Assembly: GCF_003334765.1 (NCBI RefSeq)
Contig: NZ_QOWT01000002.1
DNA length: 64,000 nt
Origin: Escherichia coli
Lineage (GTDB): Bacteria > Pseudomonadota > Gammaproteobacteria > Enterobacterales > Enterobacteriaceae
Reading direction: 5' to 3' (one strand)
Positions 58,992 through 63,562 of this stretch are shown here, one piece after another (position 1 is the first letter of the stretch; every line of letters starts with the position of its first letter). Both the position numbers and the translations under genes were made by a program. The notes below the pieces were generated by a model. The model was not told the origin of the DNA. It was given only the letters and a program-made list of their open reading frames with translations, and did not search any database.

Positions 58992-59108
58992 CGATTTCTG
59001 CGGTTAAAGCGGATGAAGCTCACCTTCGTCCGCTCTCCCCTTCTCTTTTCTGCCTTTTTTAGCCAGGATTAACGCTCAGTTAACTTACCAGAGTATTGCG
59101 GAGCCGTT

Positions 59109-60095
59109 GTGACCAGGACCAACCTCATCACCGGTTTTCTCGGCAGCGGGAAAACCACGTCGATTCTTCATCTGTTAGCCCATAAAGATCCCAACGAAAA
59201 ATGGGCGGTACTGGTTAATGAATTTGGGGAAGTCGGAATTGATGGTGCTTTGCTCGCCGATAGCGGCGCATTGCTGAAAGAGATCCCCGGCGGCTGCATG
59301 TGCTGCGTTAATGGTTTACCCATGCAGGTAGGGTTGAATACCTTACTGCGTCAGGGAAAACCAGACCGCTTGTTGATAGAGCCGACCGGGCTGGGCCATC
59401 CGAAACAGATCCTCGATCTGTTAACCGCACCAGTCTATGAACCGTGGATAGATCTGCGCGCCACCTTGTGCATTCTCGATCCGCGCTTGCTGCTGGACGA
59501 AAAAAGCGCCAGCAATGAAAACTTCCGTGACCAGCTGGCTGCCGCAGACATCATTGTCGCCAATAAATCCGACCGTACGACGCCCGAAAGTGAGCAAGCG
59601 CTACAGCGTTGGTGGCAGCAAAATGGTGGCGATCGACAATTAATTCACAGTGAGCATGGGAAAGTTGACGGTCATCTTCTGGATTTGCCGCGTCGCAATT
59701 TAGCCGAGTTGCCCGCCAGCGCCGCGCATTCTCATCAGCATGTCGTGAAAAAAGGGTTAGCAGCGTTAAGCCTGCCAGAGCATCAACGCTGGCGTCGCAG
59801 TCTGAACAGCGGGCAAGGATATCAGGCCTGCGGCTGGATATTCGACGCTGATACGGTATTCGACACCATTGGCATTCTGGAATGGGCGCGACTTGCACCG
59901 GTGGAACGCGTCAAAGGCGTGCTGCGTATTCCCGAAGGGCTGGTGCGAATCAACCGTCAGGGCGATGACCTGCACATTGAAACGCAAAACGTTGCGCCAC
60001 CGGACAGCCGTATTGAGCTGATTTCCAGCAGCGAAGCTGACTGGAATGCCTTGCAGAGCGCGCTGTTGAAGCTTCGTTTAGCGACTACCGCGTAA
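59109..60095 (+). CDS. yeiR: COG0523 (CobW-like) zinc-associated GTPase YeiR
   Basis: GTG start; P-loop GFLGSGKTT and CxCC motif. Confidence 0.85.
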   Translation: MTRTNLITGFLGSGKTTSILHLLAHKDPNEKWAVLVNEFGEVGIDGALLADSGALLKEIPGGCMCCVNGLPMQVGLNTLLRQGKPDRLLIEPTGLGHPKQILDLLTAPVYEPWIDLRATLCILDPRLLLDEKSASNENFRDQLAAADIIVANKSDRTTPESEQALQRWWQQNGGDRQLIHSEHGKVDGHLLDLPRRNLAELPASAAHSHQHVVKKGLAALSLPEHQRWRRSLNSGQGYQACGWIFDADTVFDTIGILEWARLAPVERVKGVLRIPEGLVRINRQGDDLHIETQNVAPPDSRIELISSSEADWNALQSALLKLRLATTA

Positions 60096-60133
60096 GGTTG
60101 CCTGCGTTTTTCAGTAAGATAATTAGAGAAAAT

Positions 60134-60847
60134 ATGATTAAAAATTTGCCGCAAATAGTGTTGTTGAATATTGTCGGCCTCGCGCTGTTTCTTTCCTGGT
60201 ATATCCCCGTTAATCATGGATTCTGGTTGCCGATTGATGCGGATATTTTTTATTTCTTTAATCAGAAACTGGTCGAAAGTAAGGCCTTTTTGTGGCTGGT
60301 TGCATTGACCAACAATCGCGCCTTCGACGGTTGTTCACTGCTGGCGATGGGTATGTTGATGCTGAGTTTCTGGCTGAAAGAAAACGCCCCTGGCAGACGA
60401 CGTATCGTGATTATTGGTCTGGTCATGCTATTAACTGCAGTGGTATTAAACCAGCTGGGTCAGGCATTAATTCCTGTAAAACGGGCCAGCCCAACATTGA
60501 CTTTTACCGATATTAACCGCGTCAGCGAACTGCTCTCTGTTCCCACGAAAGATGCCTCACGAGATAGCTTTCCCGGCGATCACGGCATGATGCTGCTTAT
60601 TTTTTCGGCATTCATGTGGCGTTATTTCGGCAAAGTTGCAGGCCTTATCGCCCTTATTATTTTTGTGGTTTTTGCATTTCCCAGAGTAATGATTGGCGCA
60701 CACTGGTTTACTGACATCATTGTCGGTTCGATGACCGTGATATTGATCGGTTTGCCCTGGGTGTTGCTGACGCCATTAAGTGATCGATTAATCACCTTTT
60801 TTGACAAATCACTACCAGGAAAAAACAAACATTTCCAAAACAAATAA
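60134..60847 (+). CDS. lpxT: Lipid A 1-diphosphate synthase LpxT (PAP2 family)
   Basis: PAP2 membrane phosphatase-like ORF; start at MIKNLPQIV. Confidence 0.85.
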   Translation: MIKNLPQIVLLNIVGLALFLSWYIPVNHGFWLPIDADIFYFFNQKLVESKAFLWLVALTNNRAFDGCSLLAMGMLMLSFWLKENAPGRRRIVIIGLVMLLTAVVLNQLGQALIPVKRASPTLTFTDINRVSELLSVPTKDASRDSFPGDHGMMLLIFSAFMWRYFGKVAGLIALIIFVVFAFPRVMIGAHWFTDIIVGSMTVILIGLPWVLLTPLSDRLITFFDKSLPGKNKHFQNK

Positions 60848-61258
60848 CTCACAGTAATTAACATCATCAGGGTTATTTTTATAGTGAGGATAATCCTGAT
60901 GATGCGCACCGTGCTTTCATCTATCGAACGCAAAAATCATTCTCTAAGTAAATGAATGGATTGCATGCGTTTCACTCAATTGTACTTTAATTGACCAACC
61001 CCACTTATTAACTTTCTGTATCACTTTTTCTTATAAAAAATCATGTAAAACCGCTCGCCAAGACCGCACCAATCGGGTAATCTCGAACTCGTTTTGCCTC
61101 GGCGGTAGATTATCCTCACAGCATATAATTTTGTGCGTTAGTCCACAGATTTGGCCTTAAGGAATTGTTTCAACATGCCCAGGTAATTAGTCTCGTGTCG
61201 CTTGGCATTTTTTTATAACGATATTTGTCGTTAAGGACTTCAAGGGAAAACAAACAAC

Positions 61259-61825
61259 ATGGTCAAATCTCAACCGATTTTGAGATATATCTTGCGCGGG
61301 ATTCCCGCGATTGCAGTAGCGGTTCTGCTTTCTGCATGTAGTGCAAATAACACCGCAAAGAATATGCATCCTGAGACACGTGCAGTGGGTAGTGAAACAT
61401 CATCACTGCAAGCTTCTCAGGATGAATTTGAAAACCTGGTTCGTAATGTCGACGTAAAATCGCGAATTATGGATCAGTATGCTGACTGGAAAGGCGTACG
61501 TTATCGTCTGGGCGGCAGCACTAAAAAAGGTATCGATTGTTCTGGTTTCGTACAGCGTACATTCCGTGAGCAATTTGGCTTAGAACTTCCGCGTTCGACT
61601 TACGAACAGCAGGAAATGGGTAAATCTGTTTCCCGCAGTAATTTGCGTACGGGTGATTTAGTTCTGTTCCGTGCCGGTTCAACGGGACGCCATGTCGGTA
61701 TTTATATCGGCAACAATCAGTTTGTCCATGCTTCCACCAGCAGTGGTGTTATTATTTCCAGCATGAATGAACCGTACTGGAAGAAGCGTTACAACGAAGC
61801 ACGCCGGGTTCTCAGCCGCAGCTAA
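61259..61825 (+). CDS. mepS: Murein DD-endopeptidase MepS (Spr), NlpC/P60 lipoprotein
   Basis: 188 aa; lipobox LSAC and catalytic Cys (DCSGF). Confidence 0.95.
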
Positions 61826-61873
61826 TAAACCGTTTGGATGCAATCCCTTGGCTATCCTGACGAGTTAACTGAA

Positions 61874-61898
61874 AGCACTGCTTAGGCAGTGCTTTTTT
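61874..61898 (+). terminator. Intrinsic terminator after mepS
   Basis: AGCACTGC / GCAGTGCT stem with 4-nt loop followed by TTTTTT. Confidence 0.85.
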
Positions 61899-62005
61899 GT
61901 TTTCATTCATCAGAGAAAATGATGTTTCCGCGTCTTGATCCAGGCTATAGTCCGGTCATTGTTATCTTTTAAATGTTGTCGTAATTTCAGGAAATTAACG
62001 GAATC

Positions 62006-63562
62006 ATGTTCATACGCGCTCCCAATTTTGGACGTAAGCTCCTGCTTACCTGCATTGTTGCAGGCGTAATGATTGCGATACTGGTGAGTTGCCTTCAGTT
62101 TTTAGTGGCCTGGCATAAGCACGAAGTCAAATACGACACACTGATTACCGACGTACAAAAGTATCTCGATACCTATTTTGCCGACCTGAAATCCACTACT
62201 GACCGGCTCCAGCCGCTGACCTTAGATACCTGCCAGCAAGCTAACCCCGAACTGACCGCCCGCGCAGCGTTTAGCATGAATGTCCGAACGTTTGTGCTGG
62301 TGAAAGATAAAAAAACATTCTGTTCATCTGCGACCGGTGAGATGGACATTCCACTCAATGAATTGATTCCGGCGCTCGACATTAATAAAAACGTCGATAT
62401 GGCGATCTTACCCGGCACGCCGATGGTGCCGAACAAACCCGCAATCGTCATCTGGTATCGCAACCCTTTGCTGAAAAATAGCGGCGTCTTTGCCGCTCTG
62501 AATCTCAACCTGACGCCTTCACTCTTTTATAGTTCACGGCAGGAAGATTACGATGGCGTCGCCCTCATTATTGGCAATACTGCGCTATCTACCTTTTCTT
62601 CACGTTTGATGAACGTTAACGAATTAACCGACATGCCAGTCCGTGAAACTAAAATTGCGGGCATTCCTCTGACCGTTCGGCTTTATGCAGATGACTGGAC
62701 ATGGAACGATGTGTGGTACGCATTTTTACTGGGCGGCATGAGTGGAACTGTCGTTGGCCTGCTCTGCTATTACCTGATGAGCGTACGTATGCGCCCCGGC
62801 AGAGAAATCATGACCGCCATCAAGCGCGAACAATTTTACGTGGCGTATCAACCGGTGGTGGATACACAAGCTTTGCGAGTAACGGGCCTGGAAGTACTGC
62901 TACGCTGGCGGCATCCTGTCGCGGGAGAAATTCCCCCGGATGCCTTCATTAACTTTGCCGAATCGCAAAAGATGATTGTGCCGCTGACTCAGCACCTGTT
63001 TGAGTTAATTGCCCGCGATGCCGCAGAATTAGAAAAAGTGCTGCCGGTAGGCGTCAAATTTGGTATTAACATTGCGCCGGACCATCTGCACAGCGAAAGC
63101 TTTAAAGCAGATATCCAGAAACTGCTCACTTCCCTGCCCGCACACCATTTCCAGATTGTGCTGGAAATTACCGAGCGCGATATGTTGAAAGAGCAAGAAG
63201 CCACACAACTCTTCGCCTGGCTGCACTCGGTCGGCGTAGAAATTGCTATTGATGACTTCGGCACCGGGCACAGCGCGCTTATCTATCTTGAGCGTTTTAC
63301 GCTCGATTATCTGAAAATTGACCGTGGATTTATCAACGCCATCGGTACGGAAACGATCACTTCCCCCGTACTTGACGCGGTGCTGACGCTGGCGAAACGC
63401 CTCAATATGCTGACGGTTGCTGAAGGGGTCGAAACGCCGGAACAGGCGCGATGGCTAAGCGAACGCGGCGTTAATTTCATGCAAGGCTACTGGATTAGCC
63501 GCCCGTTACCGCTGGACGATTTTGTTCGCTGGCTAAAGAAACCGTATACGCCGCAGTGGTAA
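62006..63562 (+). CDS. rtn: EAL-domain membrane protein Rtn (PdeN), c-di-GMP phosphodiesterase family
   Basis: N-terminal TM and periplasmic region plus C-terminal EAL domain. Confidence 0.85.
   Translation: MFIRAPNFGRKLLLTCIVAGVMIAILVSCLQFLVAWHKHEVKYDTLITDVQKYLDTYFADLKSTTDRLQPLTLDTCQQANPELTARAAFSMNVRTFVLVKDKKTFCSSATGEMDIPLNELIPALDINKNVDMAILPGTPMVPNKPAIVIWYRNPLLKNSGVFAALNLNLTPSLFYSSRQEDYDGVALIIGNTALSTFSSRLMNVNELTDMPVRETKIAGIPLTVRLYADDWTWNDVWYAFLLGGMSGTVVGLLCYYLMSVRMRPGREIMTAIKREQFYVAYQPVVDTQALRVTGLEVLLRWRHPVAGEIPPDAFINFAESQKMIVPLTQHLFELIARDAAELEKVLPVGVKFGINIAPDHLHSESFKADIQKLLTSLPAHHFQIVLEITERDMLKEQEATQLFAWLHSVGVEIAIDDFGTGHSALIYLERFTLDYLKIDRGFINAIGTETITSPVLDAVLTLAKRLNMLTVAEGVETPEQARWLSERGVNFMQGYWISRPLPLDDFVRWLKKPYTPQW

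Follow-up and report, generated by a model that had tools for sequence, protein, structure and literature searches.

The window analysed here, 64,000 nucleotides of Escherichia coli DNA, contains the yeiR-lpxT-mepS-pdeN region of E. coli K-12, and its coordinates are converted to those of MG1655 by adding 2,208,720. The positions of all features are collected in Table 1. A spacer of 411 nt separates lpxT from mepS, and no gene is annotated in this spacer, nor is the mini-ORF within it, in MG1655 or in PGAP-annotated genomes. An earlier description made from the letters alone, the sequence-only reading, had given a 411-bp non-coding spacer upstream of mepS, and in this it was right as to both the size and the absence of an annotated gene. 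Between 60780 and 61300 the window differs from MG1655 in a single nucleotide, A for G at 61003, outside the hairpin and the ORF. G is found at this position in MG1655 and in both further E. coli strains whose bases were read individually, and no genome 100% identical over 60780-61300 was present among the matches listed; the A looks like a private variant of the source strain. A literature search returned no paper on the lpxT-mepS intergenic region, and for lpxT in combination with sRNA or terminator only its repression by MicA was found, which appears unrelated to the 3' hairpin.

Two mepS promoters from genome-wide studies are cited by an OxyS study of mepS (PMC10798246), in which the OxyS site has the numbers 146-156 on the long mepS mRNA and 37-47 on the short one. 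From this numbering we infer that transcription starts near 61090 for the distal promoter P2 and near 61199 for P1. Both inferred starts thereby follow the hairpin at a distance of 185 nt or more, and the ORF, ending at 60955, is outside the mepS 5' leader.

A palindrome follows the lpxT stop codon at a distance of 14 nt. A repeat finder reported two arms of 15 nt (60862-60876 and 60890-60904) that are 93% complementary and 13 nt apart, the single non-Watson-Crick position being a G-U pair in the + strand RNA. With RNAfold the stem was lengthened to 20 contiguous pairs, 60862-60881 with 60885-60904. The isolated hairpin has a folding energy of -23.7 kcal/mol, and its 131-nt context one of -37.9 kcal/mol (z = -5.25), which none of 200 shuffles equalled. 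Four G-U pairs make the K-12 hairpin more stable as + strand RNA than as - strand RNA, by 9.5 kcal/mol. No U-tract is found after the stem, the tail being CGCACCGU with one U in 8 nt. The earlier description of a 15-bp imperfect inverted repeat lacking a U-tract was accurate on both counts, and the repeat extends to the 20-bp stem. Its placing of the hairpin after lpxT holds as well, apart from the distance, which it gave as 15 nt. The GAGGA motif that it assigned to the 3' arm is in that arm in the extended stem only, as in the 15-bp repeat GAGGA belongs to the loop.

Table 1. Features in and around the lpxT-mepS spacer. Positions are those of the window unless preceded by a locus number.
Feature	Position	Strand	Remarks
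lpxT coding sequence	60134..60847	+	matches MG1655 b2174; stop TAA 60845-60847
sigma-70-like match	-35 TTAACA 60858-60863, -10 TATAGT 60880-60885	+	16-nt spacer
hairpin 5' arm	60862..60881	+	outer 15 nt CATCATCAGGGTTAT = inverted repeat; inner 5 nt pair via A-U, G-U
apical loop of extended stem	60882..60884	+	UAG; RNAfold
hairpin 3' arm	60885..60904	+	holds GAGGA (60886-60890) and ATGATG (60899-60904)
18-codon ORF	60899..60955	+	MMRTVLSSIERKNHSLSK; judged incidental, not a gene
in-vivo RNA 3' end	60907 (MG1655 2269627)	+	3 nt after last base pair; listed flank is hairpin sequence
C-rich, G-poor tract	60905..61065	+	possible Rho-loading region
Pho-box-like repeat	loci L010-L081, e.g. L011:3287-3304, L044:3286-3303	+	homologous to approximately window 60905-60958
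IS1 insertion, strain 20A24	L092:685-1500 (approximately window 60893)		inside hairpin 3' arm; target duplication GGATAATC
IS1 insertion, strain MIN12	L003:3274-4050 (approximately window 61053)		about 35 nt upstream of inferred mepS P2 start
mepS	61259-61825		downstream of lpxT

Among nine sampled E. coli alleles the 43-nt hairpin has one variable position, 60872, which is an internal G-U site. Substitutions form a hot spot at 60908-60929, where these alleles have 7 variable sites in 22 nt, and identity to K-12 over 60840-60965 reaches 99% in no more than about 35% of the 5,407 E. coli genomes compared. The hairpin sequence itself is found at a median of one place per genome in these 5,407 genomes. 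An Rfam scan of 59000-63000 at E <= 1 gave no family at the hairpin and two sub-threshold chance matches elsewhere. Since it is single-copy and without an Rfam family, the hairpin is not a repeat of the REP/BIME type.

The conservation of the hairpin was investigated in 80 lpxT loci gathered from across the Enterobacteriaceae, one genome per species, the hairpin statistics being based on 82 loci. mepS is the next gene after lpxT in every locus with enough DNA, and the spacer is mostly 411-427 nt long. A stable hairpin is found 0-32 nt after the lpxT stop in nearly every locus, with a sequence that depends on the clade. When the most stable hairpin within 70 nt of the stop is taken for each locus, the median dG is -17.5 kcal/mol (82 loci), relative to -5.5 kcal/mol for other windows of the same spacers and -6.4 kcal/mol for dinucleotide shuffles. 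A dG of -12 or lower was reached in 84% of the loci, in 5% of the other windows and in 1% of the shuffles; the loci are phylogenetically related and p-values overstate their independence, while the contrast with the controls is large. In an alignment of 64 distinct sequences (A2), 13 of the 15 pairs have substitutions on both sides. Pairing is seen in 83.5% of cells, and sliding the partner by 1-3 columns lowers this to 24-43%. For covariation the alignment scores 0.308, at most 0.095 after sliding, and none of 500 shuffles did as well. The core stem was recovered independently by RNAalifold.

Escherichia and Citrobacter share a hairpin of the form CAUCAUCAGGG..., the outer 5' arm of which is kept as (A)CATCATCAGG in these and other genera. 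In Salmonella a 16-bp stem of wholly different sequence, AUUACCUUCAGCGAUG, is found at the same place. The hairpin of Enterobacter, Lelliottia and Kosakonia is AUCAGGGAUCG-UUUU-CGAUCCCUGAU, that of Klebsiella and Raoultella is AAGGGAUCG...GGUCCCUU followed by UUUUUAU, and that of Atlantibacter is AAACCGCC...GGCGGUUUUUUAUUG. Klebsiella oxytoca, Atlantibacter hermannii and Pseudenterobacter timonensis each have at the homologous site a stem with T-run that was called by a terminator scan, and the same scan did not call the E. coli hairpin. Of the 78 stable hairpins, 12 are followed by 8 nt of which five or more are T, and the U-tract of intrinsic terminators is present in the orthologues of loci L044, L053, L078 and others. 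The intrinsic-terminator form, a GC-rich stem with a T-run after lpxT, occurs in Klebsiella, Raoultella, Atlantibacter, Pseudenterobacter and some Enterobacter or Lelliottia loci, and the E. coli hairpin is the positional homologue of these. It has in common with intrinsic terminators the stable stem-loop shortly after a stop codon, but these have a U-tract of approximately 7-8 nt and an RNA end 7-9 nt after the stem, as opposed to one U in 8 and an end at +3 in E. coli. In a few loci (L033, L037, L041, L056 and L075) the lpxT stop has moved so that the frame is 18-96 nt longer and runs through or past the hairpin position, and in these species the terminator hairpin either shares sequence with the 3' end of the gene or has been shifted.

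The family as a whole shows no preference for one strand. With the hairpin optimised independently on each strand, the + strand was the more stable in 44 loci and the - strand in 34 (p = 0.24), and G-U and A-C cells in the alignment are equally frequent (31 versus 32). An earlier comparison favouring the + strand was discarded as biased, the hairpin boundaries having been chosen on that strand. What assigns the structure to the + strand RNA is its mapped 3' end together with the T-runs, the fact that it reads in the direction of lpxT, and the G-U pairs in Escherichia.

The mapped 3' end is the Term-seq position MG1655 2269627 (+) in Supplementary file 1 of Adams et al. 2021 (eLife, PMC7815308). 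The peak is weak, with a score of 1323, and appears once in the three-condition table (PMC7815308). It was classed there as 'orphan' because it is 60 nt from the stop codon and the limit for 'primary' ends is 50 nt; the hairpin gives this published orphan a cause, namely the end of the lpxT mRNA. In Rho-dependent E. coli transcripts, precise steady-state ends are found immediately after stable stem-loops without U-tracts, which protect against PNPase and RNase II (Dar & Sorek 2018, PMC6061677). The E. coli lpxT hairpin is likewise stable, U-tract-less and located after a stop codon, its RNA end is likewise immediately 3' of the stem (+3 nt, by a weak signal listed once), and C exceeds G downstream. 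It differs from this class in a stem that is unusually long (20 bp), with an apical half rich in A-U and G-U pairs, and in that Rho dependence and trimming by PNPase and RNase II are presumed for this locus. The C/G ratio is 2.06 over 60905-61054 and reaches 3.5-3.6 in 78-nt windows at 60968-61065, a bias of the kind that Rho loading would call for. Supplementary file 2 of Adams et al. 2021 (PMC7815308) has no Rho termination region at 22695xx-22699xx, where low expression may hide one.

Taken with the conservation, the mapped end points to the hairpin being the conserved 3'-terminal stem-loop of the lpxT transcript, to which we assign a probability of about 0.8. Of the readings offered from the letters alone, that of an lpxT 3' stabiliser is therefore the one supported, by a conserved structure with covariation in 82 loci and by an RNA 3' end 3 nt after the stem. 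The hairpin probably descends from the transcription terminator of lpxT, and some genera have kept it as such. Escherichia, Citrobacter and Salmonella have no U-tract, and in them the stem most likely blocks 3'-to-5' exonucleases. Transcription would then end further downstream, by Rho or otherwise, before the RNA is trimmed back to the stem; this model of downstream termination followed by trimming is held with somewhat better than even confidence, and in E. coli both the exonuclease barrier and the involvement of Rho are presumed parts of it. The outcome would be a defined and stable lpxT mRNA end 3 nt past the stem, with lpxT insulated from mepS. An evolutionary switch of terminator type via U content was proposed as possible by Dar & Sorek 2018 (PMC6061677), and the lpxT hairpin family is a clean comparative example of it, one terminator position drifting across the Enterobacteriaceae between U-tract (intrinsic) and U-less (protective, probably factor-dependent) forms.

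The ORF that opens in the 3' arm is of a different nature. Its length is not unusual, as the chance of 18 open codons, (61/64)^17 = 0.44, means that about four in ten ATGs in random sequence would open such a frame; extended to a GTG at 60884 it has 23 codons. Within Escherichia the peptide of 18 codons in the K-12 window (MMRTVLSSIERKNHSLSK) corresponds to MMRLLLSSIERKNHSLSK in locus L002 (18 codons), to MMRAVAFIHQTQKSFPK in L058 (17 codons, frameshifted by a +1 insertion), to MMRGVADTHRLK in E. albertii (12 codons), to MMCDFVLVH in L004 and to MMCDFALAH in E. whittamii (both 9 codons), and the stem is kept in all six of these loci despite the differing ORFs. GAGGA is not conserved even within Escherichia. 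In other genera an ATG or ATGATG in the 3' arm opens arbitrary and unrelated frames of 3-20 codons, such as MMR*, MMLNNNSSF* and MMT*, and the Enterobacter and Klebsiella types have no such ORF. The ATG codons are common in 3' arms because they are complementary to CATCAT in the 5' arm, a motif conserved far outside Escherichia. The mini-ORF would accordingly be a by-product, with ATGATG supplied by the complement of CATCAT, a body in poorly constrained sequence, and a Shine-Dalgarno-like GAGGA arising from an Escherichia-specific apical extension of the stem. It is most likely incidental, and it is probably not translated.

That the mini-ORF instead encodes a real small protein or leader peptide, with the hairpin gating its translation and so regulating mepS or lpxT, is quite improbable. 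Sequestered start sites are a known regulatory design, GAGGA is well spaced at 8 nt upstream of the first ATG, and the frame of 18 codons is open in all nine sampled E. coli alleles. Among these alleles, however, amino-acid changes (4 codons: T4L, V5L, E10A and R11S) outnumber the synonymous ones (2), and the length and frame of the ORF are unstable within Escherichia and unrelated or absent in other genera, with the stem retained throughout. The entire initiation region is buried in the -23.7 kcal/mol stem, which a ribosome stopping at the lpxT stop 14 nt upstream should, judged from its footprint size, not reach. The dominant mapped transcript ends 8 nt into the ORF, the ORF is at least 185 nt upstream of both inferred mepS starts, it is missing from the MG1655 annotation, and its peptide was not found in the accessible part of the supplements to an Enterobacteriaceae microproteome survey. 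The proposal of a regulatory leader peptide put forward in the sequence-only reading is thereby left unsupported, as the ORF is cut short or frameshifted in E. albertii, E. whittamii, L004 and L058 while the stem is kept, and as it is outside both known mepS mRNAs. The comparison that reading had suggested, of ORF against stem conservation, gave the result it had named as refuting, an ORF disrupted in close relatives next to a retained stem. A conditional version, in which the hairpin is a gate and not a passive cap, and transcripts from lpxT read-through or from the promoter-like TTAACA/TATAGT allow translation of a young E. coli-specific peptide of 18 residues, born de novo on the relic of a Pho-box-like element that other genera retain, is even harder to credit; were it true, a micro-gene would have been born here where a terminator and a promoter decay. 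Like the leader-peptide or uORF attenuators trpL, pheL, speFL and the topAI leader, the locus has a very short intergenic ORF beside a strong RNA structure, but here the ORF is unconserved and outside the known transcripts of the downstream gene, and the structure precedes and covers the start instead of following the ORF. No alternative antiterminator pairing was seen at the mini-ORF hairpin. With the type I toxin mRNAs (Ibs, Ldr and Hok-like) it shares an ORF of 18-19 codons starting MMR... and an initiation region within a hairpin. The peptide is hydrophilic (SSIERKNHSLSK) and not a transmembrane helix, the locus is single-copy and the ORF unconserved, and on these three grounds, composition, copy number and lack of conservation, a type I toxin was ruled out; a promoter scan found no antisense promoter at the mini-ORF.

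The remaining explanations concern the palindrome itself. A promoter hidden in it, TTAACA/TATAGT firing near 60892 to give a nearly leaderless mini-ORF mRNA or a very long mepS leader, is as doubtful as the small protein. The match agrees with sigma-70 at 10 of 12 positions and is the only one of its kind in 60000-62000, yet shuffled versions of the region average 3.7 such matches, so that a single match is no enrichment. ATTAACA is kept across genera; the -10 hexamer, in contrast, is degraded to CATAGA in L004 and is found neither in E. albertii nor in any other genus. The sampled E. coli alleles show no variation in either hexamer, which the stem explains equally well, and a start at 60892 cannot yield a 3' end at 60907. 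No start reported at this place was found in the sources covered. Unlikely, too, if slightly less so, is that the repeat is bound as DNA by a dimeric protein regulating lpxT or mepS, or that it is a 20-bp duplex processed by RNase III. The core TCAGGGATCG-N4-CGATCCCTGA is conserved across many genera in sequence and not in structure alone, the absence of family-wide strand asymmetry agrees with such a site, and the 20 contiguous pairs of the K-12 stem are approximately a minimal RNase III substrate. In Salmonella, Atlantibacter, C. amalonaticus (L007) and others, however, the sequence has been replaced and the hairpin kept in place with compensatory changes, and because of this replacement a structure is favoured over an operator recognised by its sequence. 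In 12 loci the stem has a T-run after it on the + strand, the stable RNA end is just 3' of an intact stem and not within it, and no Rfam family matches. A functionless chance palindrome, finally, is scarcely credible. Short palindromes are common in AT-rich spacers, but the folding energy (z = -5.25, 0 of 200 shuffles), the placement in 82 loci relative to matched controls, the covariation and the mapped RNA end all speak against it, and positional conservation and covariation already contradict it. Chance had been the third reading offered from the letters, and it stands for the mini-ORF and fails for the hairpin.

The lpxT 3'-terminal stem-loop, new and unannotated, belongs to a well-known kind of element, and as a feature it is ordinary. 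The understanding of lpxT or mepS regulation is left unchanged by it. A candidate small-protein or leader-peptide gene is dropped, which means fewer false positives in lists of E. coli small ORFs.

In most loci of Citrobacter, Enterobacter, Lelliottia, Kosakonia, Klebsiella and Phytobacter, a + strand direct repeat is found 68-93 nt after the lpxT stop. It agrees with CTGTCAT-N4-CTGTCAT at 12-14 of 14 positions, the best match on the - strand of the spacer being at most 10, and a TAAAAT-like hexamer follows 11-12 nt after it, oriented toward mepS. The repeat corresponds to the Pho-box consensus, which is quoted in PMC3465305 as CTGTCAT-A(AT)A(TA)-CTGT(CA)A(CT). At the same measure Escherichia scores 7-9 of 14 and Salmonella 10 of 14. 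From its sequence the repeat may belong to a distal promoter of mepS that depends on PhoB and that Escherichia has lost, and the body of the E. coli mini-ORF, which is at the Pho-box-like position and at the substitution hot spot, could then be a decaying relic of it. The main text of PMC3465305, in which the E. coli PhoB sites of that study are tabulated, names neither yeiU nor the gene spr. A conserved AAATGAAnnnnTTGC block at 60949-60968, directly after the mini-ORF stop, may be bound by a protein or may contain the -10 and start of the putative Pho promoter. The block includes a conserved ATG within AAATGAA (60952), but the frame that this ATG opens was rejected as a conserved small ORF, its length across genera being 2-53 codons and often 7 (MNxLxxF).

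Independent IS1 insertions in the lpxT-mepS spacer were found in two strains (Table 1). The hairpin is dispensable for viability, since one of these natural strains carries IS1 within its 3' arm.

The promoter-proximal 240 nt of the spacer, 61015-61258, are very highly conserved in all genera sampled. They cover both mepS promoters and the leader, and the conservation exceeds what the promoters alone would need. A hairpin with a run of seven T in the mepS leader (61175-61213) was rejected as a terminator, its fold being no better than shuffles (z = -0.40). Published Term-seq 3' ends are also found at 61253-61255 (MG1655 2269973/2269975) in two conditions, 4-6 nt before the mepS start codon, and within mepS at 61416 (MG1655 2270136). 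Their positions suggest that the mepS RNA is processed, or its transcription ended early, at the ribosome-binding site with which OxyS pairs.
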